DNA from: an uncultured delta proteobacterium | GTDB lineage: Bacteria; Myxococcota; Myxococcia; Myxococcales; Myxococcaceae | NCBI GenBank assembly: GCA_963796055.1 | Contig: CAWCKH010000004.1 | Location: 1,792,001-1,856,000, forward strand | Length of the DNA stretch: 64,000 bases | Reading direction: 5' to 3' | Part shown: one piece after another, positions 13,795 through 32,922 of the stretch | How the letters are laid out: the number at the start of each line of letters is the position of its first letter | How positions within the stretch are numbered: the first letter of the stretch is position 1 | The notes under the pieces: generated by a model | Seen by the model: the letters and a program-made list of their open reading frames with translations, nothing else | Databases searched by the model: none | What the model was told of the DNA's origin: nothing | Translations under genes and position numbers: made by a program

Positions 13795-13798
13795 GGAC

Positions 13799-16576: not shown

Positions 16577-17029
16577 ATGGCCTCATCCCTGGGCTTCGTT
16601 CCGCGGCGGCGGCCGAGCGGACTGGTCAGCGAGCACCTCGACGGTGAGGTGCTGCTGTATGTCGAGGCGACGCACAAGGCGTTCTGTCTCAACCCGGCGG
16701 CGTCGCGGGTCTGGGAGTCGATCGACGGAGCGCGGGACGTCTCGGGCATCGCCCTGCGCACCGCGCTCGATCCGGAGCTGGTCGGCGGCACGCTGCGGGA
16801 GATGGGCGAGGCGGGGCTGCTGGAGGAGGTGCCGGAGCTCCCGGGCGTGGATCTGTCGCGGCGGCGGCTCGTGCGCGCGGGGCTGGTGGCGATCCCGTTC
16901 ATCCTCGCGATCACCGTGCCCCGCGCGGCGGAGGCGGCGTCGTGCGTCACCGGCCTGCCCGGTACACCCTGCGATGACACCCACACCTGCTGCGTGGGCA
17001 TCTGCAACGCCGGGTTCTGCAAACAGTGA
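16577..17029 (+). CDS. PqqD/RRE domain fused to a twin-Arg leader and six-Cys peptide (putative precursor, copy 1)
   Basis: EVLLY...CLNPAASRVWESIDGAR (PqqD-like), then LSRRRLVRAGLVAIPFILAITVPRAAEAA and SCVTGLPGTPCDDTHTCCVGICNAGFCKQ. Confidence 0.8.
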   Translation: MASSLGFVPRRRPSGLVSEHLDGEVLLYVEATHKAFCLNPAASRVWESIDGARDVSGIALRTALDPELVGGTLREMGEAGLLEEVPELPGVDLSRRRLVRAGLVAIPFILAITVPRAAEAASCVTGLPGTPCDDTHTCCVGICNAGFCKQ

Positions 17030-18117
17030 AACTGGACGAGGCACTGGCGCTGGCGATCGCCGGCGCGCTGCGAAGAGCCTGGGCTGACCCCGGTCCACCC
17101 CGCGTGCCGGCGGTGGACGTTCGACGCTGGGCCGAGCGCTTGGTCGAGGGTGGTGTCGCAGGGCTCGCGTGGTGGCGCATCAAGAACACCGAGATGGGGA
17201 CGCTCGCCCAGCTCTTACCGCTGCGCGCAGCGTTTCAGCACCACGCCCTGACGGCGGCCAGGCAGGAACGCGATCTTCCGCATCTTCTGGCTCACTTCAA
17301 TGCCGAAGGGATCGAGCCGATCCTGTTCAAGGGGTGGACCCTCGCGCGACTCTATCCGCACCGCGCGCTCCGTCCGTTCGGTGACTTCGACCTGCTGGTG
17401 CGGGAGTCCGAGGTCGATCGGGCCCGCACGGTTCTGCGCTCCCTCGGACCGGACCTTCAGTCGCGGGCCGATGTAGACACCGCGCGGACGCTGGCGCGCT
17501 ACCTGCCTGATCGAACGGAGGCCGAACTCTTCGGCCGTGCCCGCTCGGAGACGGCCGGTGGTGCTCGGCTCAGGACGCTCGCCGCCGAGGACCACCTCCG
17601 TCTGGTGACGCTGCACCAGCTTCATCACGGGGCCTGGCGGCCGCTGTGGCTGTGTGACGTGGCGTTGTTGCTCGAGGCGCTCCCAGCGGAGTTTTCCTGG
17701 GAGCGGTGCCTCGCAGGCGATCCACGGCTGAGTGAGGGTGTACTGGTCAGCGTGGCGCTCGCGCACGAGTTGCTCGGAGCGACCATTCCGCGCGGAGTGC
17801 CGCAGGTGGCGGTCCCCCGCTGGCTCCGACGTGCGGTGTTCCACGGATGGGCGCATGGCTACGAGAGCATGCCCCCGTCGCTGTACGACCTCCGGAAGCT
17901 GGGGTGGCCAGAGGCGGTGACGGCAATCCGCGCGCGGTGGCCGGATCCGGTGAGCGCGACGGTGCATCTTCGCGCTCCGTTCCGAGCCGTGCCGCGTCCC
18001 GTGGTCCAGCTCACGGAGTGCCTGCGCCGGGCGGCGGCTTTCGTCCGGCGTGATTTGCGCTGGCGTGCGGGTCTGGACGCGCAGCTTGCAACTGTCGGCA
18101 AGGGGGTTGTGCCGTGA
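17026..18117 (+). CDS. Nucleotidyltransferase family protein (NTP_transf_5-like), copy 1
   Basis: GIEPILFKGWTLARLY, RPFGDFDLLV, DHLRL...H, LWLCDV; GTGA-coupled to both neighbours. Confidence 0.82.
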   Translation: MKLDEALALAIAGALRRAWADPGPPRVPAVDVRRWAERLVEGGVAGLAWWRIKNTEMGTLAQLLPLRAAFQHHALTAARQERDLPHLLAHFNAEGIEPILFKGWTLARLYPHRALRPFGDFDLLVRESEVDRARTVLRSLGPDLQSRADVDTARTLARYLPDRTEAELFGRARSETAGGARLRTLAAEDHLRLVTLHQLHHGAWRPLWLCDVALLLEALPAEFSWERCLAGDPRLSEGVLVSVALAHELLGATIPRGVPQVAVPRWLRRAVFHGWAHGYESMPPSLYDLRKLGWPEAVTAIRARWPDPVSATVHLRAPFRAVPRPVVQLTECLRRAAAFVRRDLRWRAGLDAQLATVGKGVVP

Positions 18118-21100
18118 CTGCCTGGAGGGCCCTGAGGGCCGCGCTGCTCATGGTGGCGGCGGCTAGCAGCCCGAGTCTTGCGCAGGTGACCTGCCCCATT
18201 GGGGCGAGCACGTGGCTGGACGGCGCGGGCTCGTGGGTGACCGGAACGAACTGGAATCCGACGGGGGTGCCAGCCCCGAGCGCCGATGTCTGCTTCGATA
18301 CTTCCACGGCCAACCCCACGCTCGCGGCCGGGACCACGACGGTGGGGACGCTGAACGTGCTGTCCACGGGGACCCTCACGTTGACCGGTGGCTCTCTCCG
18401 CAACTTCACGATCAACGGCGGGATCAATGCCGATGGTCCGTTCACCTTCAACAGCATCACCAATGTCATTCCCTCGGCGACTCAAAGCTGGGTGATCAAC
18501 GGGTTCGGAAGCACATTCAATTCTCCGCTATCGGTGCCGGTCCTGACTGCCGCGACGACAACGATCAACGTCACCGGGATCGCTGACCTCACTTTCAACG
18601 TGGCCGCCCCTCGGGGATTTCAGGCGTTCAACTGGGGCGCAGGCGTCCTGACCCTGACGACCAATGGGCTTGGATCAGGCACTCCGATCACCTTGAGTGG
18701 CGCGAATGCGGCACTCCTCGTCAGCTCGACGGCTGCACTGACTCTCGACAATCCCGTCATCGCCACTGCCTCCGGAGAGTTGTTGGCAGTGGACGGAGCG
18801 AGCGGTGTTCAGCACGCGCTCGGGCGTGTGACGGTCTCACCAGGCGTGACGCTCCAAGAGTTGCTGGGGGGCACGAACAACGTCAAGCTCCAGCTCGGTG
18901 GTCTCACGCTCGGCGCGGGCTCGACACTCCTGAAGCAGGACTTCGGCGGCATCTATGTCAATGGGAGCGTGTCCGACACGGCGAGCAGCACGCTGACTCT
19001 GTTCATCGGGTTCACGACCCCCACTGGCTCGCAGCTGGACGAGGGGCTGCACTTCCAGTCGAGCACGACGGTCAACTCGATCATCTCCTCCACCGCGAGT
19101 TTGAACTCGGCGATGGTCGGCGCGGACGGGGCCACCACTCTGACCCTCGCCGGTGTGGTCGATGTGGGGAACGCCGGCCGCCTGATCCTCATCCCCCGGG
19201 GCGGGGCCACCATCCTGTTCGGTCCTTCCTCGTTCAATGCACCGGGCAATCCGAACGACATCCAGCTCCGCGGCACCGCTGGCAACACCGTCGAGTTCAC
19301 CAACGCGGCGGTGACCGCGAACGCAGTCACGGTGTACGACGGGCTCAGTTTCCAGACCGACGCCAACCCACCGCCACCGACGGTCACCTTCTCCACCACG
19401 AGCGGAGCGACCTGGCGGGTTCGTAACGCGGCTCAAAGTCTCCCCGGAGCGCTCACGCTCAACGCCGCTGGGACCGTGGACACGGGAACCGATCTGACCA
19501 TCACCGGGGTGCTTGCCGGGTCCGGAGCGCTCACCAAGACGGGTGCTGGTTCGTTGACCCTCGGGCCGGGGACCCATACCCACAACGGTGGAATCACCGT
19601 GAACGCCGGGACGCTCGAGGTGGACGGAACGCTCACTGGTGAGAACACCATCAGCATCAACAACGGTGGTGGGCTCGCAGGTGCCGGGACGCTGCAGTCG
19701 GGCACCGGGCCGATCACCGTGGCAGCGGGCGCGCGCTACACGCCCGGCAGCGGCGGCACCGGAATACTCGCGACCAATGACCTGAGCCTCAGCGACACCT
19801 CGGTGCTGAACTTCACCGTGGGCACACCGACGACTACGGGTTCGGTCACCGGGGCGCTGCTCCTCGACGGCATCCTCAACATCACGCAGGGCCCGGGCTT
19901 CGCCCAGGGCGTGTACACGATCTTCACCGCGACCGCCGCGATCACCAACAACGATCTTCGTCTGGGCACGGTGCCCACCGGTTTCTCCTACGGCTACGCG
20001 GTCAACGGAAACCAGGTCGAGCTGCACGTCGGTCCGCCCCCCACGGCCGTCGAGATGGTGAAGTCCGATGCCGTCAGCGACGGCAGCTCGGCTCAGGTCG
20101 CCTGGGAAGCAGGGACCGAGGTGCGGAATCTCGGCTACCGCGTGTACCGGGAAGAGAACGGCCGTCGTCAAGAGATCAGCGGACTGATCGCCGGCTCATC
20201 GTTACGGGCGGGATTCGACCCCCTCGCCGGCCGCAACTACGGCTTTGTTGACCCGAGCGGATCGTGGGGAGCCCGCTACTGGATCGAGGCCATCGGTCTG
20301 GACGGGAAGAGCCAGTGGTTCGGGCCGGTGAACGCTCGGCGTGGAGACTTGCCCCAGACGCGTGTGCAATCCGCTGCGCTCGTGGCAAAGGTCGGGGCGT
20401 CGGCGCTGGTCGCCTCCGTTGAACGGCCCAGCGCTCGCCAGGTGGACCCACCGGGTGTCGATCGCTCTTGGCGAGATCCGAACCTGAGGCGACAGTGGGA
20501 GATCGCGGCCAGCTCGACTGCGGTGAAGCTCCTCGTCCATCAGGACGGCGTGTACCGGGTCAGCGCAGACCAGCTCGTCCAGGCCGGCCTTCCTGCGGGG
20601 ACTCCGCTCGGCTCGCTGAGGCTCTGGTCGGGCGGTAGCCCCGTCGCGTTCCGCGTGGTCGGGAATGCTGTCGAATTCTTCGGGCAGGCCGCGGACACCC
20701 GGTACACCGACACCCGGGTGTACTGGCTCACCACTGGGCTGGGCCAACCGATCTCGATCAAGGCGGCTCCGACGGCGAACGCCACGGGCGCAGCCGGCAG
20801 CTTCCTCGAAACGCTCGAGATTCGCGACCGTACGCTGTACCTCGCGGCACTCCTGAACGCAGAGACGGATGGCTTCTTCGGGGAACCGCTCATCGGAACG
20901 AGCCCGATGGAGCGCGTGTTCTCCACTCCTGCGCTGGCGGTGGTGGCGAGCGACCCCGCCGTGCTGGAGGTGAGCGTCCAGGGGCTCACCAACGGTAACC
21001 ACACGATCGACGTCACCGTGAACGGGCTCGTCGTGGGGACCGTCCACAGTGTGTTCCAGGACGTGGCGAAGGCCCGCTTCATGGTTCCGCCTGGGCTGCT

Positions 21101-22598
21101 GGTGGCGGGAGACAACAAGGTCACCCTGGTTGGGCGCACTAGCTCCGAGATCGCGATCGAGATCTCGCAGCGGCTCACCTACCCACGTCAGTACATTTTG
21201 GGTGGCCCGCTCCGTTTCACGGCTCCGACTGGATTGGCGCTGACGCTCGCCGGCGCGGACGCATCCACTCACGTCCTCGACATCACCAACGTCCTCTCCC
21301 CTGCGGCCGTCGCGCTCACCAGCACTTCGGGAGGGGCGCGTCTGATCGCTAGTGGCTCGGGTACACGCATCCTCTACGCCTACCGCGATTCCGACGTGCG
21401 CTCTCCCGCCTGGGTGCAGAACGTCTCGAGTGCCTGGCACAACTCCAGCGGCGCCGATCTGGTCATCATCGGTCAGCGGGATCTCCTACCGAGCCTCCGT
21501 CCGCTCGCGGAACAGCGGGCGAGTGAGGGCTTGAAGGTCGCGCTGGTCGACGTCACTGACGTGTACGACGAATTCTCTGCGGGCGAGAAGGATGCGATGG
21601 CCATCCGCGCATTCCTCTCGGCGGCGATGGAGCGGTGGTCGACGCCGCCCCGCTTCGTGCTTCTCGTCGGATCGGCCACCTTCGATCCGCGCGGCTGGCT
21701 CGGACAGCCGGAGCTCGACCAGGTCCCGACGGTGCTGGTGCAGACTCGCTACCTCGAGACGGCATCGGATGACGCACTCGTCACCTTCCACGGCACCGTC
21801 CCTGACTTGGCGATCGGGCGGCTACCGCTCTCCACGCCAGCGGCGATGGAAGCGGCTGTGGCAAAGATCGTCGGGCGCAAGCTGGCGGGCGGCGAGGACA
21901 CGCTGCTCCTGATACGCGATCGGGACGGCACCATCTCGTTCTCCGCAGCCTCAGCCGAGGTGCGGGCTGCAGTCTCAAGCTGGAAGGCGCAGGACTTCCC
22001 ACGCGGCGCCGATGACGCCGCTACTCATTCCGCCCTGCTTGACGCACTTCGCAGTGGTCCGATCGCCGTCGACTACCAGGGTCACGGAGCGGAGGACTTC
22101 TGGGCCGGACGGATATTGGCGTCCACGGATGCCGATGCTCTGGCCGGTGCCGGCACGAGTTCGCTCGTGGTCGCCGCCACGTGTCTGAACGCGTACTTCC
22201 TGGACATCGGTCGCGAGAGCTTGGGCGCCGCGATGCTCAGGACCCCAGAAGGCGGCGCCTGGGGCGTCTGGGCGTCCTCCGCCCTGACACTTCCAACCGA
22301 CCACGCGCTGCTGAGCAAAACGCTGCTCTCCGCGGTGCTGAACGACGGGATGACGCTCGGGGAGGCGACCCTCAAGGCCAAGCAGGCGGTGAGTGATCTC
22401 GACGTTCGTGCCACCTTCCACCTCCTCGGCGACCCGAGCGCCCGGGCCGTGGCCACGCGGAGCTCTGCACTCACGATCTCGAAGCCGAAGAGCTCCTCGG
22501 CCGGCGGCTGCAATACCCCGGGTGGTCCGCTCTCGGCGCTGGCGCCGCTGGTCTTGGCCGTCCTGGCGCTCTCGCTCCGCCGCCGCTCGGTCTCCTGA
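18114..22598 (+). CDS. Secreted beta-helix / C25 (gingipain-like) cysteine peptidase with MYXO-CTERM-type tail, paralog 1 (1494 aa)
   Basis: Signal peptide; autotransporter-type repeat LTKTGAGSLTL; VYDEFS, RFVLLVG, ASDD, IGRLP, YQGHG, ATCLNAYF, LLGDPS; tail GGC-linker-TM-RRR. Confidence 0.85.
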   Translation: MTAWRALRAALLMVAAASSPSLAQVTCPIGASTWLDGAGSWVTGTNWNPTGVPAPSADVCFDTSTANPTLAAGTTTVGTLNVLSTGTLTLTGGSLRNFTINGGINADGPFTFNSITNVIPSATQSWVINGFGSTFNSPLSVPVLTAATTTINVTGIADLTFNVAAPRGFQAFNWGAGVLTLTTNGLGSGTPITLSGANAALLVSSTAALTLDNPVIATASGELLAVDGASGVQHALGRVTVSPGVTLQELLGGTNNVKLQLGGLTLGAGSTLLKQDFGGIYVNGSVSDTASSTLTLFIGFTTPTGSQLDEGLHFQSSTTVNSIISSTASLNSAMVGADGATTLTLAGVVDVGNAGRLILIPRGGATILFGPSSFNAPGNPNDIQLRGTAGNTVEFTNAAVTANAVTVYDGLSFQTDANPPPPTVTFSTTSGATWRVRNAAQSLPGALTLNAAGTVDTGTDLTITGVLAGSGALTKTGAGSLTLGPGTHTHNGGITVNAGTLEVDGTLTGENTISINNGGGLAGAGTLQSGTGPITVAAGARYTPGSGGTGILATNDLSLSDTSVLNFTVGTPTTTGSVTGALLLDGILNITQGPGFAQGVYTIFTATAAITNNDLRLGTVPTGFSYGYAVNGNQVELHVGPPPTAVEMVKSDAVSDGSSAQVAWEAGTEVRNLGYRVYREENGRRQEISGLIAGSSLRAGFDPLAGRNYGFVDPSGSWGARYWIEAIGLDGKSQWFGPVNARRGDLPQTRVQSAALVAKVGASALVASVERPSARQVDPPGVDRSWRDPNLRRQWEIAASSTAVKLLVHQDGVYRVSADQLVQAGLPAGTPLGSLRLWSGGSPVAFRVVGNAVEFFGQAADTRYTDTRVYWLTTGLGQPISIKAAPTANATGAAGSFLETLEIRDRTLYLAALLNAETDGFFGEPLIGTSPMERVFSTPALAVVASDPAVLEVSVQGLTNGNHTIDVTVNGLVVGTVHSVFQDVAKARFMVPPGLLVAGDNKVTLVGRTSSEIAIEISQRLTYPRQYILGGPLRFTAPTGLALTLAGADASTHVLDITNVLSPAAVALTSTSGGARLIASGSGTRILYAYRDSDVRSPAWVQNVSSAWHNSSGADLVIIGQRDLLPSLRPLAEQRASEGLKVALVDVTDVYDEFSAGEKDAMAIRAFLSAAMERWSTPPRFVLLVGSATFDPRGWLGQPELDQVPTVLVQTRYLETASDDALVTFHGTVPDLAIGRLPLSTPAAMEAAVAKIVGRKLAGGEDTLLLIRDRDGTISFSAASAEVRAAVSSWKAQDFPRGADDAATHSALLDALRSGPIAVDYQGHGAEDFWAGRILASTDADALAGAGTSSLVVAATCLNAYFLDIGRESLGAAMLRTPEGGAWGVWASSALTLPTDHALLSKTLLSAVLNDGMTLGEATLKAKQAVSDLDVRATFHLLGDPSARAVATRSSALTISKPKSSSAGGCNTPGGPLSALAPLVLAVLALSLRRRSVS

Positions 22599-22783
22599 GG
22601 CCGGACGTTGTGAACCGGCGCGCTCTGCGCCGTGGGTCACCACCGACTTGGTGGCCCGCGCCGACCCCGCATCCCACCTCTGCGGGGAATGTCGGACCGC
22701 GTCGGCAAACTACCGACTGAACTTCGAGCTCTCTCCATGTCGTCGACGCGCAGAGGCGCTTTCTCGACGGAGCGTCGGAGTGT

Positions 22784-22811
22784 CTGCGAGGATGCGGGCA
22801 TCGATTCTGCA
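22784..22811 (+). promoter_or_regulatory. Putative sigma54 (-24/-12) promoter
   Basis: GG(22797-98)-N10-GC(22809-10) within CTGCGAGGATGCGGGCATCGATTCTGCA; a near copy occurs at 28862. Confidence 0.55.
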
Positions 22812-22823
22812 CCCTGACCCTTG

Positions 22824-23279
22824 ATGCCGAACCGACCCAAGGCCCGGACGGACCAGCTCCTCGTCCAGAGAACTGGACAGGACACCCTGGTCTACGACGA
22901 GCGGACCCACCGGGCGCACTCCCTCGATGCGAGGGCGGCACGGGTGTGGGAGCTCTGCGACGGCGCACGGACCGAGCCCGAGATCGCGCAGGCTTACGGC
23001 GAGGGCGCAGCAGGCGAGGCGGTGGTGAGCTGGACGCTGGCAGCGCTTGAGAAATCCGCGCTCCTCGAGGACGACAGCGGAGTGGAGGCGCGGGCGGCAC
23101 TGAGCCGGCGGGCGCTGATGAGGACCGTCGGGCTCGCGGCGATCCCGGTCATCATGGCGATCACCGCTCCGCGGGCGCGGGCGGCCGTGTCGAGTTGCTC
23201 GAACGGTGGGCAGCAGTGCTCGACGAAGCCGTGCTGCCCCATGTTGACCTGTGACACCCAGACCTTCACCTGTCAGTGA
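22824..23279 (+). CDS. PqqD/RRE domain fused to a twin-Arg leader and six-Cys peptide (putative precursor, copy 2)
   Basis: TLVYDERTHRAHSLDARAARVWELCDGART, then LSRRALMRTVGLAAIPVIMAITAPRARAA and VSSCSNGGQQCSTKPCCPMLTCDTQTFTCQ. Confidence 0.82.
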   Translation: MPNRPKARTDQLLVQRTGQDTLVYDERTHRAHSLDARAARVWELCDGARTEPEIAQAYGEGAAGEAVVSWTLAALEKSALLEDDSGVEARAALSRRALMRTVGLAAIPVIMAITAPRARAAVSSCSNGGQQCSTKPCCPMLTCDTQTFTCQ

Positions 23280-24280
23280 CCGCGGTGGCACATCCCCTGG
23301 CGATGGCGTTGCGCGACACCTTCCGCACCCAGGCGGTCGGGCCGATGTCGCTCGCCCCTGAGCTCGTCCGCTCTGCCGAAGTGACTGGAGTCGAGGCGCT
23401 GCTGCTGCGGCGTCGAGAGGACGTGCCATCCGGGACGGAGCGCTTCCAGAGTCTGGAGTACCTTCGTCGCGAGCGCTGGCTGGCCTCGGTCTTCACCGCG
23501 CTCGAGTCCCACGGAATCCGGGCGGTCACGTTCAAGGGCTGGGCTCTCGCCCGCCTCTACGGCCGACCCGGGCTGCGGCCGGTCGGCGACGTGGACCTCG
23601 CCGTCCGTCCCGAAGACTTCGGACACGCGCGGACGGTACTCGCCGCCTTCCAGGGCGAGAACGAGGTCGATCTCCAGTCGGACCTCTCGCGGTACCTTCC
23701 TGACCGGAGCCCGGAGGCGCTGCTGACCTGCGCCCAGGCCGTCGAGGTCGCCGGTGGTCACATCCAGGTACTGGGTCCCGCCGACCACCTCCGTCTGGTT
23801 TGTCTCCACCAGCTCCACCACGGATCCTGGCGGCCTCTTTGGCTGTGCGACGTGGCGGTGCTGCTCGAGTCATTGCCGGCGGACTTCTCCTGGGCGGAGT
23901 GCCTTCATGGGAGCCGGCACCTGGGAGAGGGCGTGCTCGCCTGCGTGGGTCTCGCCTGCGAATGGCTGGGCGCAAGACCGACGGTGCCGCCGCCGGAGGC
24001 CGTCGTCCCGGAGTGGTTCCGCCGTGCGGTCGGGAGTGCATGGGACCGGGGCTACCGTCCGTCTCCGGAGCGGCTCGAGGGCATCTCGCTGGCCCGGCTT
24101 CCAGAAGCGCTCAGGGCACGCTGGCCGGATCCACTGTCCTCGACGCTCCATCTGGACGCACCTTTCCACCGGGTACCGAGACTGCCGATCCAGGTTGCGG
24201 AGCTGGTCCGCCGCAGCTCGCGCCACGCCGTCCGCCGGTGGCGGTCGCGCGGAGCGGGGGTGGGAAGGGGGGAGTCGTGA
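23276..24280 (+). CDS. Nucleotidyltransferase family protein (NTP_transf_5-like), copy 2
   Basis: FKGWALARLY, RPVGDVDLAV, DHLRLVCLHQLHHGSWRPLWLCDV; clear paralog of 17026..18117. Confidence 0.82.
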   Translation: MTAVAHPLAMALRDTFRTQAVGPMSLAPELVRSAEVTGVEALLLRRREDVPSGTERFQSLEYLRRERWLASVFTALESHGIRAVTFKGWALARLYGRPGLRPVGDVDLAVRPEDFGHARTVLAAFQGENEVDLQSDLSRYLPDRSPEALLTCAQAVEVAGGHIQVLGPADHLRLVCLHQLHHGSWRPLWLCDVAVLLESLPADFSWAECLHGSRHLGEGVLACVGLACEWLGARPTVPPPEAVVPEWFRRAVGSAWDRGYRPSPERLEGISLARLPEALRARWPDPLSSTLHLDAPFHRVPRLPIQVAELVRRSSRHAVRRWRSRGAGVGRGES

Positions 24281-27200
24281 GAAGACTGATTCCGTTCGCG
24301 TTGCTTGCAGTCGCACTGGCTGCGCCACGGGCGCATGCCGTCGCCAAAACCTGGAACGGCAGCGTCAACATCCAGTGGAACAACGGCGCCAACTGGACGC
24401 CCGCCGGAGTTCCGACCGCCGCGGATGACGTGACGATCAACGTCCCAGGCACGGTCCGGATCTCGAACAATCCGATCGCCGCCGATGCGGTCGCAGCATC
24501 GCTGACCATCGGTGCGGCGGTCACGATGAATCGCGGCAACGGCCACATCCTCACCGTGACCAACGGCATCAATGTCAACTCGACCTCTGACGTGTTGATC
24601 CAGGTGCCGTTCACCGCGGCGAGCCTGAGCAAGAGCGGCACCGGAAATCTGACCCTGAACGGAGCCGCCCTGTCCGGGACGACGCCGCAGGTCAGCGGGA
24701 CGGTCGACGTGACCGGCGGGACACTGACCCTCAACGGCGGGAACGATCTGACCACCGGCGGAGCGGTGAACGTCAGCACGGGCGCGACCCTGGCTCGCAA
24801 CGGTGCCGGCTTCCTGAACGCGGGTGGAGCGGTGACCGTCGATGGAGGAGCGATGACCTTCGCCGCCGGTGGTGGTCTCGCCGCCAGTGCGACGGTCACC
24901 GTCATGGGCGGGGGAACCGTGTCCTTCGCCGGAGGCGGCGGTCTCACCTCGGGCGGCGCGGTGACCGTCACTGGTGGGACGATGAGCTTCGCGGCCGCTG
25001 GTGGTCTCACCTCGGGCGGAGGAGTGAACGTCACCGGCGGAACGATCACCTTCGCTGGCGGTGGCGATCTCGCATCGGCGACTTCGATGGTCACCGTGGG
25101 GGCCGGCGGCACTCTGGCATTTCCCGGCAATGCCAACCTCGGCGCGGGCGACGTGATCGTGAACGGCGGAATCGTCTCCTTTGGCGGGAACGGAGATCTC
25201 ATTGCCACCGGAGGAGTGACGGTGACCGGAGGAGGGAGTCTCTCCTTCGGTGGGAACGGCGACATCACCGCTCAGAGCTTCACGCTGGCCTCGGGCTCGT
25301 CATTCACCTTGAACTTCGCCACCGGTGGCAACCCGACGAACATCAACCTCACCGGCGGGACCGGAGCCCTGGGCGGGACCGTCAACATCACCGGGACTCC
25401 GAACGCAGCCAGCTTCAACATCCTCACCGGTGCGAGCACGGTGGACATCACCGGGGTGATGCTCGGGAGCGCGCCGAGCGGATTGGCGTTCGGGTTCCGC
25501 CCACTGGGAACCAGCACCGTCGTGCTCGACGTGACGGTCAACCCCATCGCTCCGGATGGCACCGCCTCGGCCACTGGAAGCTGCCCGGGACCGATGACCT
25601 GGCAGCACACCATCTCCGCAACCGCCAACGACCGCTACCTGCTGGTCGGAGTGTCGACGGGCACCAGCGCCGTCACCCCGACGGCGGTGAGCTTCGGCGC
25701 CCAGCCAATGGGCCTCATCGCCAGCCGGGTCAATGGCAGCTCGGGCGCGTTCATCTATGGCCTGGTGGCCCCGGGGCGTGGAACGGGGACCATCACCGTC
25801 ACCCTCCCCGCAGGCCCATGCAGCGTGGTCGCCGGCTCGCTCTCGTATACGGGGGTCCTTCAGGCCAGCTCGACGGGCACCGCCGCCACCGCCGCGGGGA
25901 CGGGGACCAGCGCCTCGGCGTCGCCTTCGACCGTCCAGGGGGACAAGGTCATCGCCGTCCTGGCGTCCAACGGGGCCACCTCCGCGACCCCGCAGGCCGG
26001 AGCGACCGTCCGCTGGTCTGCGATCCAGGGCACGGTGCTCGGCGCGGGTGATACCGCGAGCCGCAGCGGGGCAGGCACTTTCAACGTGACCATGAGCTGG
26101 ACCCTGAGCCCGTCGAGCGAGTTCGCGCTCGCGTCGGTCCCCATCCATGCGGCAGCGCCCACTCGGGTGATGGAGATCGCGGCATCGGTTCGGCGCTCGG
26201 GGACGGCCCTGGCGGTGTCCGTGCGGTCTGGGCCCAGGTCGGACCTGGTGGGCTTTCGCGTGTGGCGCGAGGCCGCTGGGCAGCGTGAGCTCCTCACCCC
26301 AGGTCTGGTGGAGGGTCCGGTACTCACCTCACGGGCCAGCCTGCTGGCAGGCTCTGAGAGCGGCTGGGTCGATGCCCGACCCGTCCCCGGTGCGAACTAT
26401 CTGATCGAGGCGCTCCACCTCAACGGTCGGACCACCTGGTCGCGGGCGGCACCTGGCGCGGGTCCGGCTCCCCCCGTGGCCTCGGCTCTGCTGGCGTCGC
26501 CGGCCAGTGCGGTGGTGGTTCACCAGCCCGCGCTTCGCGTGAGCGCCGCCGAGCCCGTGTCTCGCAGATCCGCGCTGGTGATGCAGGGCACCCAGTGGCA
26601 GCTCGCCGCGGACGCCGCGGTGAAGATGAGGGTGTCCACGGCGGGCCTGGTCCGCGTCCCGGCCGAGCTGCTCTTCGCCGCCGGCATTCCCGTCGGTGCC
26701 GCGGCGTCCTCGATCCAGCTGTTCCGCGGTGGGCGCCCAGTCCCCCGGACCGTCGACGCCTCGGACGGCGTTACGCTGCGGAGCGGGGACGCAGTGGAGT
26801 TCTACGGCTACCCGATGGACACGCGCTACTCCGGCTCCGCCGTCTACTGGCTGACCGCAGGCAAGGGTGTGGGCGTGGAGGTCCCGAGCACCGGGTGGAT
26901 CGCGCCGGGCGCGGCCACCCGCTCGTATCTCGCCTCAGCCGAGGTCCGGGAGCGCCTCACCTGGTTTGGCGCCGCAAGAAACGGCGACGCCGAGAAGTTC
27001 TTCGGGCCGGCGGTCCACTCCACCGCCCGGCAGCGGACGATTCCGGTCGACGCCCTTGACGTCTCGGGGGCGGGGGCACGGCTCGAGCTCGCGTTCCAGG
27101 GTTTGACCGAGATCCCCCACGCAGTGTCGGTGAGCGTGAACGGCCTCCCTGTCGCCTCGGTGACCTTCGACGGGAATACACCCCATTCGGCGCTGGTCCC

Positions 27201-28761
27201 TCTTCCGCCGGGGACCTTGGTGGCCGGGGACAACACCGTCGAGCTGGTCGCGCCCGGCTCGGCGGACATCTCGCTCGAGCAGTACGTCCGGCTGGTCTAC
27301 CCGCGCTTCACGGTCCGCGGCTCGGGCGCGCTGGAGTTCACCCTCGCCGGAGGAGCTGCCACCCGCCTGGACGGCTTCGATCCGGGGCTCACCCGCGTGC
27401 TGGACATCACCGACCCGGACGCCCCCGTGCGCCTGACGACCTGGGACGAATCGGGAGCTGCGGCGGTGGCTGCACCAGGGTCGGGTTCCCGGCGGCTCTT
27501 GGCCTATCTCCCGACGGACGTGGCGTCCCCGGTTTCGGTGGTGGCCAATCGTCCCAGCAGCTGGCACTCCGCGGAGGGCGCGGACCTGATCATCGTGGGT
27601 CCGGCCTCGCTCCTCCCGGAGGCGCAGGCGCTGGTCGACGCGCGCAGGGCACAGGGCCTTTCGGTGGCGCTGGTGGATGTCGAGGATGTGCAGGACGAGT
27701 TCGCCTCCGGTGAGAAGAGCGCCGATGCCCTGCGTGGCTTCCTCCAGCAGGCGCTGGGGGCCTGGGCGCGGCCACCGCGCTACATTCTCCTGCTCGGCTC
27801 GGCCACCTATGACCCCCGTGACTACCTCAGGCTGGGCGGAGACCTGGTCCCCAGCGGCACCGTGCAGACCGAAGTGCAGATGAACGGGCAGACCGAGGCG
27901 CTCGAGGCAGCCTCGGACAGTTGGTTCCTGGGCGTCCCGGGTGCGGGGGCCCTTAGCATCGGGCGTCTTCCGGTGAGGACTGCGGAGGAGACCCGGGCAG
28001 TGGTGGCGAAGATCGTCGGGCGGCGGGATGCGGATGCGAAGGCGAACGTCCTGCTGGTCTCCGACCGTGCGGGGACCAGCGACTTCCCGGAGATGAGCGC
28101 CGACCTTCGGGCCGTGCTCCCGGACGCCCAGGCGACGGTGCTGGTGCGGGGGTCGGACACGGACCAGGTGCTGCACCAGCGGATGCTGGAAGCACTCCGG
28201 GCCAGTCCGGCCCTGGTGAACTACATCGGCCACGCCGCGGAGACGTTCTGGAGCGACCCCACCGCCCCCCTCTTCAGCGTCGACGACGTGTCCGCGGTCG
28301 CTGGAAACCAGCCCGGCTTGTGGATCGACATGAGCTGCCTCACCGCGTTCTTCCAGGATCCGCGTCGTCAGAGCCTGGACGTCGCGACCTTGTTGGCCTC
28401 CGAAGGTGGGGCCTGGGGCACCTGGGGCAGCACGGCGAAGACCTACCCGGGCGATCACGCAGGCCTGAATCGGGCGCTGGTGCGCGCGCTGCTGATCGAA
28501 GGGAAGACGCTCGGCGAAGCAACTCGTGACGCTCTCGCCTCCGCCACCGACCCGCAAGTGCAGTCGACGTTCGTGCTGCTCGGCGACCCGAGCGCCCGCG
28601 CCGTGGCCACGGCGGCGCTCGAGGTGGCCCCCCCGAAGCCGTCCGCCTCCTCCGGGTGCAGCGCGACTCCCGCTGGGTCCGGCACCCTGGCGCTCCTTGC
28701 CATCGGCCTCTGGTGGGCCGCGGCGCGACGCCGCGTCCGAGTGGGGGTCCGGCGCGAATAG
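24277..28761 (+). CDS. Secreted beta-helix / C25 cysteine peptidase with MYXO-CTERM-type tail, paralog 2 (1494 aa from GTG 24277)
   Basis: Signal peptide RRLIPFALLAVALAAPRAHA; VQDEF, IGRLP, NYIGHA, MSCLTAFF, LLGDPS; tail SGC-TM-RRR. The upstream part of ORF 23800 is shadow of the NTase gene. Confidence 0.85.
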   Translation: MRRLIPFALLAVALAAPRAHAVAKTWNGSVNIQWNNGANWTPAGVPTAADDVTINVPGTVRISNNPIAADAVAASLTIGAAVTMNRGNGHILTVTNGINVNSTSDVLIQVPFTAASLSKSGTGNLTLNGAALSGTTPQVSGTVDVTGGTLTLNGGNDLTTGGAVNVSTGATLARNGAGFLNAGGAVTVDGGAMTFAAGGGLAASATVTVMGGGTVSFAGGGGLTSGGAVTVTGGTMSFAAAGGLTSGGGVNVTGGTITFAGGGDLASATSMVTVGAGGTLAFPGNANLGAGDVIVNGGIVSFGGNGDLIATGGVTVTGGGSLSFGGNGDITAQSFTLASGSSFTLNFATGGNPTNINLTGGTGALGGTVNITGTPNAASFNILTGASTVDITGVMLGSAPSGLAFGFRPLGTSTVVLDVTVNPIAPDGTASATGSCPGPMTWQHTISATANDRYLLVGVSTGTSAVTPTAVSFGAQPMGLIASRVNGSSGAFIYGLVAPGRGTGTITVTLPAGPCSVVAGSLSYTGVLQASSTGTAATAAGTGTSASASPSTVQGDKVIAVLASNGATSATPQAGATVRWSAIQGTVLGAGDTASRSGAGTFNVTMSWTLSPSSEFALASVPIHAAAPTRVMEIAASVRRSGTALAVSVRSGPRSDLVGFRVWREAAGQRELLTPGLVEGPVLTSRASLLAGSESGWVDARPVPGANYLIEALHLNGRTTWSRAAPGAGPAPPVASALLASPASAVVVHQPALRVSAAEPVSRRSALVMQGTQWQLAADAAVKMRVSTAGLVRVPAELLFAAGIPVGAAASSIQLFRGGRPVPRTVDASDGVTLRSGDAVEFYGYPMDTRYSGSAVYWLTAGKGVGVEVPSTGWIAPGAATRSYLASAEVRERLTWFGAARNGDAEKFFGPAVHSTARQRTIPVDALDVSGAGARLELAFQGLTEIPHAVSVSVNGLPVASVTFDGNTPHSALVPLPPGTLVAGDNTVELVAPGSADISLEQYVRLVYPRFTVRGSGALEFTLAGGAATRLDGFDPGLTRVLDITDPDAPVRLTTWDESGAAAVAAPGSGSRRLLAYLPTDVASPVSVVANRPSSWHSAEGADLIIVGPASLLPEAQALVDARRAQGLSVALVDVEDVQDEFASGEKSADALRGFLQQALGAWARPPRYILLLGSATYDPRDYLRLGGDLVPSGTVQTEVQMNGQTEALEAASDSWFLGVPGAGALSIGRLPVRTAEETRAVVAKIVGRRDADAKANVLLVSDRAGTSDFPEMSADLRAVLPDAQATVLVRGSDTDQVLHQRMLEALRASPALVNYIGHAAETFWSDPTAPLFSVDDVSAVAGNQPGLWIDMSCLTAFFQDPRRQSLDVATLLASEGGAWGTWGSTAKTYPGDHAGLNRALVRALLIEGKTLGEATRDALASATDPQVQSTFVLLGDPSARAVATAALEVAPPKPSASSGCSATPAGSGTLALLAIGLWWAAARRRVRVGVRRE
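24715..25290 (+). repeat. About nine degenerate 21-22 aa Gly-rich coding repeats
   Basis: Units such as GGTMSFAAAGGLTSGGGVNVT, GGTVSFAGGGGLTSGGAVTVT and GGIVSFGGNGDLIATGGVTVT. Confidence 0.75.
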
Positions 28762-28861
28762 GTCGATTGACCGGGAAGGATCGCCGTGCTCTCGCGCGCC
28801 CGCCGCGCACACCTCGGTAGGTTCGGAGCGTCGACCGCATCCTCGACCGGGGCAGATCGCC

Positions 28862-28890
28862 CTGCGAAGATGCAGGGCATCGAACCTGCA
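28862..28890 (+). promoter_or_regulatory. Putative sigma54 (-24/-12) promoter
   Basis: GG(28876-77)-N10-GC(28888-89) within CTGCGAAGATGCAGGGCATCGAACCTGCA. Confidence 0.55.
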
Positions 28891-28905
28891 AACGGCTCGC
28901 CGCTG

Positions 28906-31900
28906 ATGTGGTCTCGAGACAGGCTCCACCGGCGGTGCGGCAGGAGCGCGGCCCGAAGGCCGAGCGCCCGTCGTCCCACGGCACTGCTCTCGTTGGGGCT
29001 GGCGGCAGCGGTGCTGCTGTCGACGGAGGTCCGAGCCGCCGCGGTGAATTGGCAGGCCGGAAGCGGCGCCTGGAACAACGGTGTCAACTGGTCGACGGGG
29101 ACCGTTCCGACCTCGAACGACGACGTCACCATCAATTCGGCGGTCACCGTCCAGGTGAACAACCAGGGCGGCAACGCGGTCGCCCGCACTCTCACCCTCG
29201 GATCGGGCGCGGCCCTGACCCGGGCGAACGGAAGGACGCTCGCGGTCGGTCAGGGCATCAACGTTGCCTCCGGCAACGCCACCCTGAACATTCCCTTCAC
29301 CGCCGGAACCCTCAGCAACACCGGTACCGGCACCCTGACCGTCGGCCAGTCCGGGACCGTGACCGGCAACGTCGGGGTGAGTGACGGGGGAACCCTCGCT
29401 TTTACCGGAACCGCCACTTTGGGCGCCGGAAGCTTCACCCTCGCATCGGGTTCGGCGCTGACCTTGAACTTCTCGAACACGACCACGGTCGCGCTCCTCA
29501 CCGTCTCGGGCAACGCGACGGTGGCCGGGACGCTGAACCTCACCGGCTCCACCCCCAGCCTCGCCGGAAGCCCGTACCACCTCGTCAGGTCCACCGGCGG
29601 CACGATCGACTTCACCGGGCTCTCGCTTGGCACCGTTCCGGGAGGCCGCACCTTCGGGTTCCGCGTCCTGGGAACCGACCTGGTCATGGATGTCACGCAG
29701 AACCCGATCGCGATCGACTCGGTCACCTCGACCACCGGGACCTGCGCCGCGGGGACAGTCAGCTGGCAGCACACCATCGGCGCCACGGCAAACGACCGGC
29801 TGCTGATCGTCGGTGTCTCGACCGGAAGCAACTCGGGCAGCGCGTTGCCCACCTCGGTGAGGTACGGGACCCAGACCCTGACCGCGCGAGGCGGAGACAA
29901 CGCCGGAACCACGCAGGTGCAGATCTACACGCTGCTCGCGCCTCCGCGGGGGACGAACACGGTGACGCTGACCTTTCCGGGAGGCAGCACCTGCTTCGCG
30001 GTTGCGGGCTCGGTCTCCTACACGGGTGTGAGCCAGTCCAACCCGATCGGCGGAGTGGTCAGCGACACCGAGACCGGGAACACCCCGCTGCTGGCGACCA
30101 TCGACGTGAACGTGCAGCCCCATTACAAGGTGTTCGCCGTCCTCTCCTCGAACACCGCGACGTCGGCCACCCCGGTCCAGTCGAACGTGACGGCGCGCTG
30201 GTCCGCGCTCAACGGGACCGAGTTCGGAACCGCCGAGACCCTGGCCTACGGGGGAAACAACAACACCACCATCACTCTCTCGTACAACATGGGCCCGCCC
30301 AGCTCGACCTTCTGGTCGCTCTCGGCCATGCCGATCCACCCGGCGAATCCAAACGCTGCGGCGCCACCCGCGCCCGTCGTCCGGTGGTCGGCCGGGGGTG
30401 CCGCGCTTTCCTGGAGCCTGGACGCCACCTCGGATGTGGTGGGCTTCCGCGTCTGGAGAGAGGCCGCTGGGCAGCGGGTGCTCCTCACGCCGGGGCTCCT
30501 TGCCGGCCCACTGCTCGCCAGCAGGGCGACATTGCTCGCCGGCTCGCAACCCGGATGGGTCGACCGGAGCCCGGTTCCGAGTGCCACGTACCTGGTCGAG
30601 TCACTGCACCGGGACGGAAGCACCCGCTGGACGCCCGCCGTCGCCGGCTCCGGTACGGCTCCTGCCCTCTCCTCGGAGCTCGTCGCGGTTTCTCCCTCGT
30701 CGCTGCTCCGTGCACTGCCAGGGCTGCGGGTCGAGCCTGCCGACCTTCCGGCGCTACCGCCGCGGCCTGGCTCCCGGGAGCTCCAGTGGGAGCTCGCCGC
30801 GGGCCACGCGGTCAAGCTTGTCGTCTCGCGGCCGGGTGTGGTCCGCGTGTCTGCGGAGTCGCTTTTCGCTGCAGAGATTCCGGTCGGAACTCCGGCTTCC
30901 TCGCTCCAGCTGTTCCGCGAGGGGCGCCCGGTTGGCCGCACCGTGCTCACCACAGACGGAGCAACGCTCCAGCCGGGCGACTCGGTCGAGTTCTACGGTC
31001 ATGGGATGGACACGCGGTACTCGGGCTCGGCGGTCTACTGGCTGACCACCGGAGCCGGACGAGGCAGGGAGATCCCAACGGTGTCGGCGCCGTCGCAGGG
31101 TGTCGACACCGGCTCGTTCATGGCCGCGACCGAGATCCGGGAGCGGTTGACCTGGTTCGGCGCGGCCCGGAACGGAGACGCAGAGAAGTTCTTCGGGCCC
31201 GCCGTGCACAGCCAGGCCCGCACGCGGACGATCTCCGCCGAGGGGCTCGACGTCGCCGGCAGCGGAGCGCAGCTGGAGGTCGCGCTCCAGGGCGTCACCG
31301 AGGTGCCTCACGCGGTCAACGTGAGTCTCAACGGTCTGTCGCTCGGAACCCTCTCGTTCGAGGGCGCGGTGCCCGGGCGGGCGACCTTCGGGGTGCCGCC
31401 TGGAGCGCTCATCCCGGGGGACAACGAGATCGAGCTGGTGGCGCCCGCCGCCTCCGACATCTCCCTGGAAGAGTTCGTCCGGCTGGTCTACCCGCGGCAG
31501 ACGCTCCGGGGCTCGGGTGCGCTGGACTTCAGGCTTCAGGGCGGGAGTGCCACGCTCCTCAAGGGCTTCGACCCCACGCTTACGCGGGTCCTCGATGTGA
31601 CCGACCCGGAGGCCCCCGTGCAGCTCGTCACCTGGGACCTCTCCAGCGACGCGGCGGTCGCGGCCCCCGGCTCGGGCCCTCGGCACCTGCTGGCGTACAT
31701 CCCGGGCGATACCACTCCTCCGGCGTCGGTGCGCGTCAACCATCCGAGCAGCTGGCACGCGGCCGAGGGGGCGGACCTGGTCATCGTCGGTCCGGCCGGG
31801 CTCTTCGGTGCAGTGAAGCCCCTGGTGGAGCGGCGGCAGTCGGAGGGGCTGCGGGTGGCCCTGGTGGACATCGAGGACGTCCAGGACGAGTTCGCCTCCG

Positions 31901-32922
31901 GGGAGAAGAGCGCCGAGGCCTTGCGCCGCTTCCTGGCCCAGGCGCTCGAGGCGTGGACGGTCCCGCCCCGATTTCTGTTGCTGCTCGGCGCTGCCACGTA
32001 CGATCCGCGGGACTACCTCGGGCTCGGGGGAGACCTCGTCCCCAGCGCGGTCGTCCAGACCGACGCGCTCGAGGCGGTCTCCGACAGCTGGTTCCTGGGC
32101 GTCTCGGGGGCCGAGTCAGTCTCCATCGGTCGGCTTCCGGTGCACAACGTGGCCGAGACCGAGGTCGTGGTGGCGAAGATCCTGAACCGCCGCGAGGGAG
32201 ACGCACGCTCGCCGGTGCTGCTTGCCTCCGACGCCCTGGGCACGAGCGACTTCCCGGAGATGACAGCGGACCTGCGCGCTTCCCTTCCCGATGCCGCAGC
32301 CACCGTGCTGGTGCGGGGAACGGATCCCGACGATGTCCTGCATCAGCGCTTCGTGGACGCCGCTCGGAGCGGCCCCGCCCTGGTCAACTACGCCGGGCAT
32401 GCGTCCGAGCTCTTCTGGAACGGCCATCTGCACTCCATCGAGGACGCCGAGACGCTCGCCGGGGGAGGCACGAGCCTCTGGATTCACATGACCTGTCTCA
32501 CCGGTTTCTTCCAGGATCCGCGACGGCAGAGTCTCGCCGTGGCGACTCTGCTTGCCCCGAGCGGAGGAGCCTGGGGCGCGTGGGGGAGCACGTCCATGAC
32601 GTATCCGACGGAGCACTCGGCGCTGAACCGGGCGCTGGTGAAGGGACTCCTCCTCGAGGGGAAGACCCTGGGCGAGGCGACGCGCGAGGCGCTGGCGGGA
32701 ACGACGGATGTGGACCTGGCAAACACCTTCGTGCTGCTCGGGGATCCGAGCGCGCGTGCGGTGGCGGCGAAGTCGTCGGCACTCAGGGTCAGCGGAAAGT
32801 CCTCAAGCGCGCTCGGCTGTAGCACCGCTGGTCACGGAACCGGCAGCCTCGCCCTGCTCGCGGCCGTGGCGCTTTGGCTCGCCCTTTCCCGAGGGCGGGC
32901 GATGGTCCTCGGAAAGCGCTGA
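28906..32922 (+). CDS. Secreted C25 cysteine peptidase with MYXO-CTERM-like tail, paralog 3
   Basis: Signal peptide ending TEVRA; NYAGHA, MTCLTGFF, LLGDPS; tail LGC-TM-RGR. Closest to paralog 2. Start uncertain (ORF opens at 28786). Confidence 0.85.
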   Translation: MWSRDRLHRRCGRSAARRPSARRPTALLSLGLAAAVLLSTEVRAAAVNWQAGSGAWNNGVNWSTGTVPTSNDDVTINSAVTVQVNNQGGNAVARTLTLGSGAALTRANGRTLAVGQGINVASGNATLNIPFTAGTLSNTGTGTLTVGQSGTVTGNVGVSDGGTLAFTGTATLGAGSFTLASGSALTLNFSNTTTVALLTVSGNATVAGTLNLTGSTPSLAGSPYHLVRSTGGTIDFTGLSLGTVPGGRTFGFRVLGTDLVMDVTQNPIAIDSVTSTTGTCAAGTVSWQHTIGATANDRLLIVGVSTGSNSGSALPTSVRYGTQTLTARGGDNAGTTQVQIYTLLAPPRGTNTVTLTFPGGSTCFAVAGSVSYTGVSQSNPIGGVVSDTETGNTPLLATIDVNVQPHYKVFAVLSSNTATSATPVQSNVTARWSALNGTEFGTAETLAYGGNNNTTITLSYNMGPPSSTFWSLSAMPIHPANPNAAAPPAPVVRWSAGGAALSWSLDATSDVVGFRVWREAAGQRVLLTPGLLAGPLLASRATLLAGSQPGWVDRSPVPSATYLVESLHRDGSTRWTPAVAGSGTAPALSSELVAVSPSSLLRALPGLRVEPADLPALPPRPGSRELQWELAAGHAVKLVVSRPGVVRVSAESLFAAEIPVGTPASSLQLFREGRPVGRTVLTTDGATLQPGDSVEFYGHGMDTRYSGSAVYWLTTGAGRGREIPTVSAPSQGVDTGSFMAATEIRERLTWFGAARNGDAEKFFGPAVHSQARTRTISAEGLDVAGSGAQLEVALQGVTEVPHAVNVSLNGLSLGTLSFEGAVPGRATFGVPPGALIPGDNEIELVAPAASDISLEEFVRLVYPRQTLRGSGALDFRLQGGSATLLKGFDPTLTRVLDVTDPEAPVQLVTWDLSSDAAVAAPGSGPRHLLAYIPGDTTPPASVRVNHPSSWHAAEGADLVIVGPAGLFGAVKPLVERRQSEGLRVALVDIEDVQDEFASGEKSAEALRRFLAQALEAWTVPPRFLLLLGAATYDPRDYLGLGGDLVPSAVVQTDALEAVSDSWFLGVSGAESVSIGRLPVHNVAETEVVVAKILNRREGDARSPVLLASDALGTSDFPEMTADLRASLPDAAATVLVRGTDPDDVLHQRFVDAARSGPALVNYAGHASELFWNGHLHSIEDAETLAGGGTSLWIHMTCLTGFFQDPRRQSLAVATLLAPSGGAWGAWGSTSMTYPTEHSALNRALVKGLLLEGKTLGEATREALAGTTDVDLANTFVLLGDPSARAVAAKSSALRVSGKSSSALGCSTAGHGTGSLALLAAVALWLALSRGRAMVLGKR

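Follow-up and report, generated by a model that had tools for sequence, protein, structure and literature searches.

A candidate phospho-RiPP system with a fused recognition element, and its PorU-like C25 neighbours, in a myxobacterial genome

The closest described relatives of the system considered here are RiPPs (peptides that are made on ribosomes and modified after translation) tailored by a kinase and a nucleotidyltransferase (NTase). Clusters for linear polyphosphorylated peptides (LPP) comprise lppA-K-B-S-D-N (Popov et al. 2026, PMC13381572); in the LPP consensus a Ser lies 15 residues after the leader Pro, and Ser3 is polyphosphorylated by an HprK-like kinase. The same paper states the roles of LPPs and of paeninodin-type phospho-peptides as unknown. 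In the Bsf lasso system the leader carries Pro at −14 and Leu at −12 and BsfK phosphorylates core Ser3 (PMC10368454), and in pseudomycoidin PsmN is required for the hexose on phospho-Ser (PMC6993621). Among RiPP recognition elements (RREs), LxxP variants fall within the known motifs, and 21% of PF05402 proteins exceed the length of a discrete RRE without containing another domain (PMC12710340). For PorU, the C25-family sortase of the type IX system, the bond cut in cargo is X/(G,S,A)(V,L,I), which in HBP35 is PT/A. The enzyme then couples the cut protein to amines, and medium peptides can serve too where anionic lipopolysaccharide (A-LPS) is missing (PMC4560394); in nature a seryl- or glycyl-sugar is the acceptor (PMC7468200). 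Here we describe a 64,000-nt stretch (the window) of an uncultured myxobacterial genome (G000; 5.5 Mb, 98.5% complete), in which a module of three genes occurs twice: an RRE fused to a cysteine-rich peptide (RRE-peptide), an NTase and a large C25 protein.

The core of the system is a kinase, the RRE-peptide and an NTase. On this basis it can be classed with kinase/NTase phospho-RiPPs, as a variant of the kind represented by the LPP, Bsf and pseudomycoidin lasso clusters. Most likely, it is a new LPP-like phospho-RiPP variant with an RRE acting in cis and export by twin-arginine translocation (Tat). The original prediction, made from the letters of the window, knew of no characterized pathway with this architecture; these precedents argue against a pathway wholly without parallel. 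In mainly open literature we found no published description of the system, whether approached through its RRE-peptide/C25/NTase combination, an RRE-Tat-knottin fusion or PorU outside Bacteroidota, and RRE-survey and LPP datasets may list such fusions.

The RRE-peptide and its core partners

The N-terminal part of the RRE-peptide, expected from the outset to be a PqqD/RRE domain, was recognized as such by structural comparison. Residues 1–88 of RRE-peptide 1 are most similar to the lasso RRE TbiB1 in Foldseek (E 1.8e-4), and the model, three strands followed by three helices, superposes on lasso B1, with a Z score of 9.4 and an rmsd of 2.0 over 80 residues against a lasso RRE in VIA. With the Pfam PqqD model, RRE-peptide 2 scored above the cut-off of 23.4 bits (25.2) and RRE-peptide 1 below it (20.6), and database homologs are annotated "PqqD family protein". 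A profile of 115 diverse members matched PqqD and TbiB1 with its first part, the N terminus of the Rieske subunit AioB, presumably a Tat signal, with its middle part (a weak match, E 0.59), and solved small disulfide peptides with its last part (E 0.01–0.5); these matches are weak but positioned as expected. With a diverse alignment, the pTM of the AlphaFold model rose from 0.60 to 0.75 and signal residues 109–112 were modelled as a strand, which in a check of the leader cleft aligned into the entry of NisB with its leader. This entry was the sole VIA match to reach model residue 116, aligned there with chain residue 1020, which, from the length of NisB, would belong to the leader.

Behind the RRE domain follow S-R-R, a hydrophobic stretch, AxA and the core. 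In 115 diverse sequences Arg95 never varies and Arg96 is retained in at least 90%, and all features of a Tat signal are present (S/T-R-R-x-hydrophobic consensus, h-region and AxA); the source genome encodes TatC. The twin arginines are followed by P-x-[VILFM]-x5-P in 224 of 245 sequences, among which the −3/−1 rule fits best for a cut after P+13 (168/224; the alternative at P+15 fits 133/224), placing Pro at −14 and V/I at −12. Ser or Thr occupies P+15 in 207 of 224 homologs against a background of 18%, a Pro-to-Ser/Thr spacing identical to that of the LPP consensus, and the Ser at core +3 of RRE-peptide 2 matches Ser3, the target position of BsfK. The first core residue is Ala, Gly or Ser in 157/224. 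Six Cys and Ser122 are invariant in 71 close homologs, while in the wider family the cores are hypervariable past the first two to three residues and a few lack Cys. The number of Cys is even in 217 of 224 cores, consistent with periplasmic disulfides. Of 99 cores that could be parsed in full, 50 follow the knottin framework C-C-CC-C-C, more than any other pattern. The members at L127:9995-10534 and L049:1182-1802 have Cys-free cores, collagen-like or rich in Pro/Thr, after this leader, and one family member (P0122) carries, by eye, a Hint/intein-like domain after the core.

A profile of the 71 close homologs searched against 1.84 billion representatives (50% identity clusters) at E 1e-10 or better retrieved 3,683 clusters, of which the best 150 of the list were inspected and some lower ones may be plain RREs. 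Among the matches listed, the RR motif is present in 134 of 145 distant members. The family occurs mostly in Acidobacteriota and to some extent in Myxococcota, where its distribution is patchy (16/401 genomes). Gene neighbourhoods were compared in 78 loci from a GTDB scan whose seed of 12 sequences had to contain HKAHCLNxT (best 80 of 100 confirmed), a sample biased towards Blastocatellia; the few others are labelled Binatia, Gemmatimonadota, Methylomirabilis, Chloroflexia, Planctomycetota, Nitrospinota and Clostridia. An NTase gene neighbours the peptide in 60 of these loci, a kinase gene in 43 and either of them in 63; polysaccharide genes were found in 38 and C25 genes in 28, and nine loci lack kinase, NTase and C25 alike. 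For the 36 among them that are 20 kb long the corresponding counts are 30 (NTase), 26 (kinase), 22 (polysaccharide genes), 15 (C25) and 2 (none of kinase, NTase and C25). The commonest gene order is kinase, RRE-peptide, NTase.

Both enzymes of the core are encoded in the window. An HprK-like kinase had been anticipated as a modifying partner, and one is present about 8 kb upstream, outside the span of 16577..32922 that the original prediction covered. It was detected with a hidden Markov model (HMM) of 44 neighbour kinases (E 2e-70; a Pfam scan at E 0.001 missed it), and in 9 of 19 stretches from 15 related myxobacterial genomes the kinase gene adjoins the RRE-peptide gene. The two middle genes (17026-18117 and 23276-24280) match Pfam NTP_transf_5, as had been proposed, and no solved structural relative of the NTase was found by sequence.

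No S24/S26 peptidase was detected in 78 + 20 loci with a 3-sequence HMM, ABC motifs were seen in six of the 78 loci, in each case within an opposite-strand gene of about 234–262 aa, and neither a co-oriented or dedicated exporter nor an immunity gene recurs in the 78 loci. An S24/S26-like gene does accompany the non-Tat RRE systems that lie next to other C25 genes of myxobacteria; in the source genome the single S26 match and the S24 matches are unlinked. The absence of peptidase and exporter from Tat-type loci and the presence of the peptidase in non-Tat relatives support Tat export with a housekeeping signal peptidase, both of which the source genome has. MauE-thioredoxin genes are found in 17/78 loci, and cores from such loci are longer, with a median of 10 Cys (n=21) vs 6 (n=70).

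C25 proteins and the possible role of the peptide

All three large proteins of the window match Pfam Peptidase_C25 and align with PorU at E 1e-9, including the catalytic His and Cys, in line with their first assignment to the gingipain/PorU family. The dyad is invariant in 41 C25 modules; with the NCBIfam PorU model NF033707 the proteins score 144–172 bits (cut-off 420). They are built from a signal peptide, a variable passenger, an Ig-like domain (present in 55 of 73 C25 proteins) and the PorU-like module, and the motif at the passenger/Ig boundary has Pro in 30, Thr/Ser in 37 and Ala in 22 of 41 cases. A check for MYXO-CTERM tails that had been suggested found none over the cut-off (C25b only, 16.3 bits against 20), and C25a and C25c have similar GC-hydrophobic-basic tails by eye. 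Acidobacterial C25s terminate at the catalytic domain, without an anchor, so that a released passenger would need an acceptor. Beyond its four C25s, the source genome encodes no separate cargo with a PT/A-Ig domain; one example of separate Ig-domain cargo beside a passenger-less C25 was found, in genome G276. At L138:1210-6352, a C-type-lectin protein with an Ig domain and a MYXO-CTERM-like tail faces a passenger-less C25, possibly a split cargo/sortase pair. Blastocatellia-type genomes G419, G430 and G401-G403 have 11–24 C25 matches, with proteins of up to ~3,300 aa.

The explanation that we favour would run from leader binding to passenger ligation, and we give it as a whole a probability of about 0.4. 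The RRE domain would bind, in cis, the signal of the chain it belongs to. Phosphorylation of Ser/Thr at core +2/+3 would be the work of the HprK-like kinase, and the NTase would cap that phosphate, giving a phospho-sugar if it acts as PsmN does. Export through Tat would follow, with release of the core by signal peptidase I and disulfides formed in the periplasm. The PorU-like C25 would then cleave off its passenger at PT/A and attach it to the new N-terminal amine of the peptide. In this way the peptide, a ribosomal product, would take the place that the seryl-sugar linker has in the type IX system. By analogy with the systems cited above, cis leader binding, phosphorylation at core +2/+3, Tat export and periplasmic disulfides are probable; the phospho-sugar product together with transpeptidation of the C25 passenger onto the peptide remains a tentative proposal; and a widespread mode of surface anchoring, in which a self-chaperoned, Ser2 phospho-glycosylated peptide serves as covalent linker for giant PorU-like sortase passengers, appears doubtful. 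The original prediction that the peptide is modified and then exported fits the three-part anatomy and can be refined, in that the route is probably Tat and built into the leader.

Linkage between C25 and peptide was counted in 30 genomes chosen for presence of the peptide, after merging three split-gene C25 matches and one split peptide match. Within 11 kb of a C25 domain lie 26 of 79 RRE-peptide genes (1.3 expected, an enrichment of ~20-fold), and within 2.5 kb 17 of 79 (0.3 expected). C25 and RRE-peptide genes stand together without kinase or NTase at six loci and at the fourth C25 of the source genome, which lies 1.1 Mb off, overlaps the third RRE-peptide gene by GTGA and adjoins no further enzyme. 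The source genome thus holds three RRE-peptide genes and four C25 genes, all linked, which suggested a one-to-one stoichiometry that the 30-genome counts rule out; the number of RRE-peptide paralogs varies from 1 to 6 per genome. In RRE, NTase and C25 trees of the genus, module 1 and module 2 genes fall into matching clades, of which that of module 2 is starred in all three trees and that of module 1 in the NTase tree only.

Several observations weigh against the favoured explanation. The linkage in other genomes on which the original prediction depended holds across phyla, but C25 is enriched rather than obligate (28/78 loci): 35 of 114 C25 genes are near a peptide gene and 79 have none within 11 kb. 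One genome has 24 C25 matches vs 5 peptides, and six of the 30 genomes, incomplete metagenome-assembled ones, have no C25 match. Within Myxococcota, 3 of 16 peptide-bearing genomes lack C25 and most of the 74 C25-bearing genomes lack the peptide. Related genomes are non-independent samples in these statistics, and co-duplication alone would be expected to give the matching module clades. C25 also flanks rSAM-type and lasso-type RRE clusters, which makes it a recurring partner of kinase/RRE/NTase peptide systems generally and not a fixed member of the RRE-peptide system. One such cluster (L135:7-12417) contains a tandem pair of C25 genes and, after them, a lasso-like precursor with a WxxPxL leader; an NTase gene and one of Asn_synthase type lie on the opposite strand. 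In this case ring closure would consume the N-terminal amine. Of the four C25s of the source genome, three have a degenerate PT/A motif (PTRV, PNAA, PNAV). In the peptide, position −17 is V/I/L/A, an aliphatic residue in place of the YxxP tyrosine, and core +1 is Val in 30/224 and Gln in 15/224. As for the NTase, LppN was without activity in the heterologous host B. subtilis (PMC13381572).

Other RRE systems beside C25 include L130:8002-10765 and L131:8864-11844, where an S24/S26-like peptidase, a discrete RRE, a radical SAM enzyme, a 55–58 aa YxxPxL Cys precursor, a kinase and C25 form one run that we take to be SynChlorMet-like; similar sets occur in L132, L143 and L149. A non-fused relative at L133:9537-12217 combines a separate twin-arginine (SRR) precursor, with YxxPxV at −14, a radical SAM/SPASM protein with a C-terminal RRE, and a kinase; a homolog search with this precursor gave no match.

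The main rival to ligation of the passenger onto the peptide is anchoring to polysaccharide, a possible though rather unlikely reading. Here an exported, LPP-like phospho(glyco)-knottin would act independently in the biofilm matrix or the capsule, the C25s would be self-processing sortase-adhesins that attach their passengers, as PorU does, to a polysaccharide amino-sugar, and the two would be co-located through a shared surface role. It would account for the many C25 genes without a nearby peptide gene and for C25 beside several unrelated RRE systems, and it agrees with the polysaccharide genes in the 78 loci, which include an AsnB-type amidotransferase like WbpS, and with the occurrence of LPP clusters in capsule loci as well (PMC13381572). 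It sits poorly with the units of C25 and RRE-peptide alone that recur in two phyla, and a scan of the 31 other open reading frames (ORFs) of the window gave a single polysaccharide gene, for a glycogen-synthase-type glycosyltransferase at the far end. We consider it improbable that the knottin core inhibits its cognate C25 or regulates the timing of its action, with phospho-modification switching the binding. Knottin frameworks are often protease inhibitors, and both the predominance of the C-C-CC-C-C pattern and the existence of tight C25-peptide pairs would suit such a role, but the cores are hypervariable, a few even lacking Cys, most C25s have no partner peptide, and what is conserved is the N-terminal Ser/Thr and not a reactive loop.

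There is likewise only a small chance that the RR motif is a mere part of an RRE leader and no Tat signal, with C25 or another protease as leader peptidase. RRE systems normally hand over to a peptidase, none dedicated to the leader is found in the loci, and the signal lies inside the protein, after a domain of 88 residues. On the other side stand the conservation of both arginines within a full Tat consensus with h-region and AxA, and the 50 of 78 loci that have no C25. Moreover, C25 would be in another compartment than the RRE because it has its own signal peptide. Just as improbable, in our judgement, is a free secreted signal or antagonistic peptide with an incidental C25 link, which would suit the several variable paralogs in a genome, the knottin-like profile matches and the additional tailoring candidates (cupin-like and CxxCxxCC proteins, below). 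The 20-fold enrichment of C25 linkage and the lack of a recurrent immunity or dedicated exporter gene speak against it, as does the lack of antibacterial activity reported for pseudomycoidin and paeninodin (PMC6993621).

If the favoured explanation of a covalent linker is true, the peptide would be the equivalent, outside the type IX system, of the seryl-sugar A-LPS anchor, and the kinase/NTase phospho-RiPPs in capsule loci would gain a function. Many PorU-like enzymes exist outside Bacteroidota (as many as 24 matches in a Blastocatellia genome), and the peptide is a concrete candidate acceptor for them. Binding of a Tat signal by an RRE in cis would join RiPP leader recognition to Tat quality control. 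As a single-gene substrate with a predicted target residue, the RRE-peptide makes kinase and NTase activity testable with three genes, in a family that is large in abundant, mostly uncultured soil lineages.

Layout of the locus and neighbouring genes

The seven ORFs of 16577..32922 are all on the + strand, in the order RRE-peptide, NTP_transf_5, C25 twice and then a third C25 (Table 1). This order, the third paralog and the GTGA stop/start overlaps at all four intra-module junctions had been noted originally and were reproduced by our ORF and junction check. Four-base overlaps are frequent in GC-rich operons, so that the overlaps show coupling and not rarity. Between the two modules, sequence identity is 40% for the RRE-peptide, 47% for the NTase and 40% for the C25 module. 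On these values the modules are old paralogs, and a recent tandem duplication or assembly artefact is ruled out. C25c is 63% identical to C25b over the C25 module. Near-identical soil DNA contigs, possibly from the source campaign, cover 14–29 of 30 bins, and none spans the whole locus.

Table 1 Features of the kinase, RRE-peptide, nucleotidyltransferase and C25 genes in window coordinates
Feature	Position (nt)	Strand	Remarks
HprK-related peptide kinase	7617..8570	+	start uncertain, ATG 7617 or 7635; Walker A + SDE motifs
RRE-peptide 1, whole ORF	16577..17029	+	150 aa
RRE-peptide 1, RRE/PqqD domain	16577..16840	+	aa 1-88; Foldseek TbiB1, VIA superposition
RRE-peptide 1, internal twin-arginine signal doubling as leader	16856..16936	+	aa 94-120; Pro107 = −14, Ile109 = −12 from predicted AxA cut
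RRE-peptide 1, core	16937..17029	+	30 aa, C-C-CC-C-C; Ser122 = core +2, predicted kinase target
NTP_transf_5 nucleotidyltransferase 1	17026..18117	+	Pfam; KG..GDxD motif intact
C25a	18114..22598	+	signal peptide, beta-strand-repeat passenger, PT/AV + Ig domain, PorU-like module, MYXO-CTERM-like tail
C25a key residues	Pro643 (nt ~20040), His1324, Cys1357	+	within 18114..22598
RRE-peptide 2	22824..23279	+	151 aa, three-part build as in RRE-peptide 1; Ser at core +3
NTP_transf_5 nucleotidyltransferase 2	23276..24280	+	Pfam
C25b	24277..28761	+	architecture as C25a; motif variant PTRV; His1319, Cys1354
C25c	28786..32922	+	probable start ATG 28870 by comparison with G237; motif variant PNAA

Between the kinase and RRE-peptide 1, a CzcCBA-like RND (resistance-nodulation-division) efflux operon lies in opposite orientation (10693-16316, −), an insertion also seen in the G090, G316, G398 and G329 stretches. 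Downstream (32980-35975, −) are a sigma-54 response regulator and a sensor kinase split over three ORFs; the G237 counterpart of the latter is a single 551-aa ORF, pointing to possible frameshifts in the window. No sigma-54 promoter with a match of at least 6/8 was found in the 400 bases upstream of the genes of the source genome or at 20 relative positions, and in a simple scan of the loci such sites (2/43 kinases, 1/35 C25, 3/99 RRE ORFs vs 0.017 per window) were not enriched.

Among other neighbours, an unannotated protein of 430–450 aa in 16/78 loci (e.g. L114:10892-12250) is a candidate tailoring enzyme with a cysteine-dioxygenase-like cupin fold (Atlas structure TM 0.57–0.68) and no solved relative by sequence. 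A CxxCxxCC-domain protein in 10/78 loci (e.g. L109:11681-12889), weakly similar to the FliB lysine methylase, is another tailoring candidate. In genus g6, an Ig-repeat-like ORF apparently lies between two RRE-peptide genes (L036:10540-12600 region and its equivalents in L038 and L041; antisense frames only); C25 is missing in G189 and G070.

Comparison with described systems

The LPP clusters share with the present system an RRE, an HprK-like kinase and an NTP transferase without a cyclase, a spacing of 15 residues from the RRE-binding Pro to a Ser, cores that vary at the C-terminal end, leader removal of the signal-peptidase type and a frequent place in capsule loci. In LPP, however, a discrete RRE serves a separate YxxPxV precursor, whereas here the RRE is fused in cis to its precursor, and a twin-arginine signal with AxA takes the place of LppS (an S26 peptidase resembling signal peptidase I) and LppD (an MsbA-like exporter). 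The system also lacks the YxxP tyrosine, has a disulfide-rich core and a C25 partner, and belongs to Acidobacteriota and Myxococcota rather than to Bacillota. Because the RRE is fused and neither LppS nor LppD is present, it falls outside LPP membership.

With the kinase-bearing lasso clusters (Bradymonas bsf, PMC10368454; pseudomycoidin psm, PMC6993621; paeninodin) it has in common an RRE fold closest to lasso B1 TbiB1 and a leader with Pro at −14 and an aliphatic residue at −12, alongside the precedents of BsfK acting on Ser3 and PsmN needed for hexose on phospho-Ser. It differs in having no B2 protease, cyclase, ABC exporter or ring-forming Asp/Glu pattern, and is no lasso cluster. The lack of a B2 protease, first noted for the window, extends to the whole source genome, where PF13471 gave no match over its cut-off. 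AsnB neighbours occur in 11/78 loci; one that was scanned scored higher with an exopolysaccharide amidotransferase model than with the lasso cyclase model, both below cut-off.

HPr-rel-A systems (TIGR04352, TIGR04353) likewise pair an HprK-related kinase with a PqqD-family protein. Both models, though, score far under cut-off here (63.7/200 for the window kinase and 21/35), and the PqqD protein of the present system carries its own signal and core. The C25 proteins, finally, resemble PorU (PDB 6za2; PMC4560394, PMC7468200) in their His-Cys dyad module and in a PT/A-type motif before an Ig-like domain, but have a cargo-like passenger fused to the enzyme, end in a MYXO-CTERM-like tail or none instead of the C-terminal domain of type IX secretion, and remain below the NCBIfam cut-off (172 vs 420 bits).

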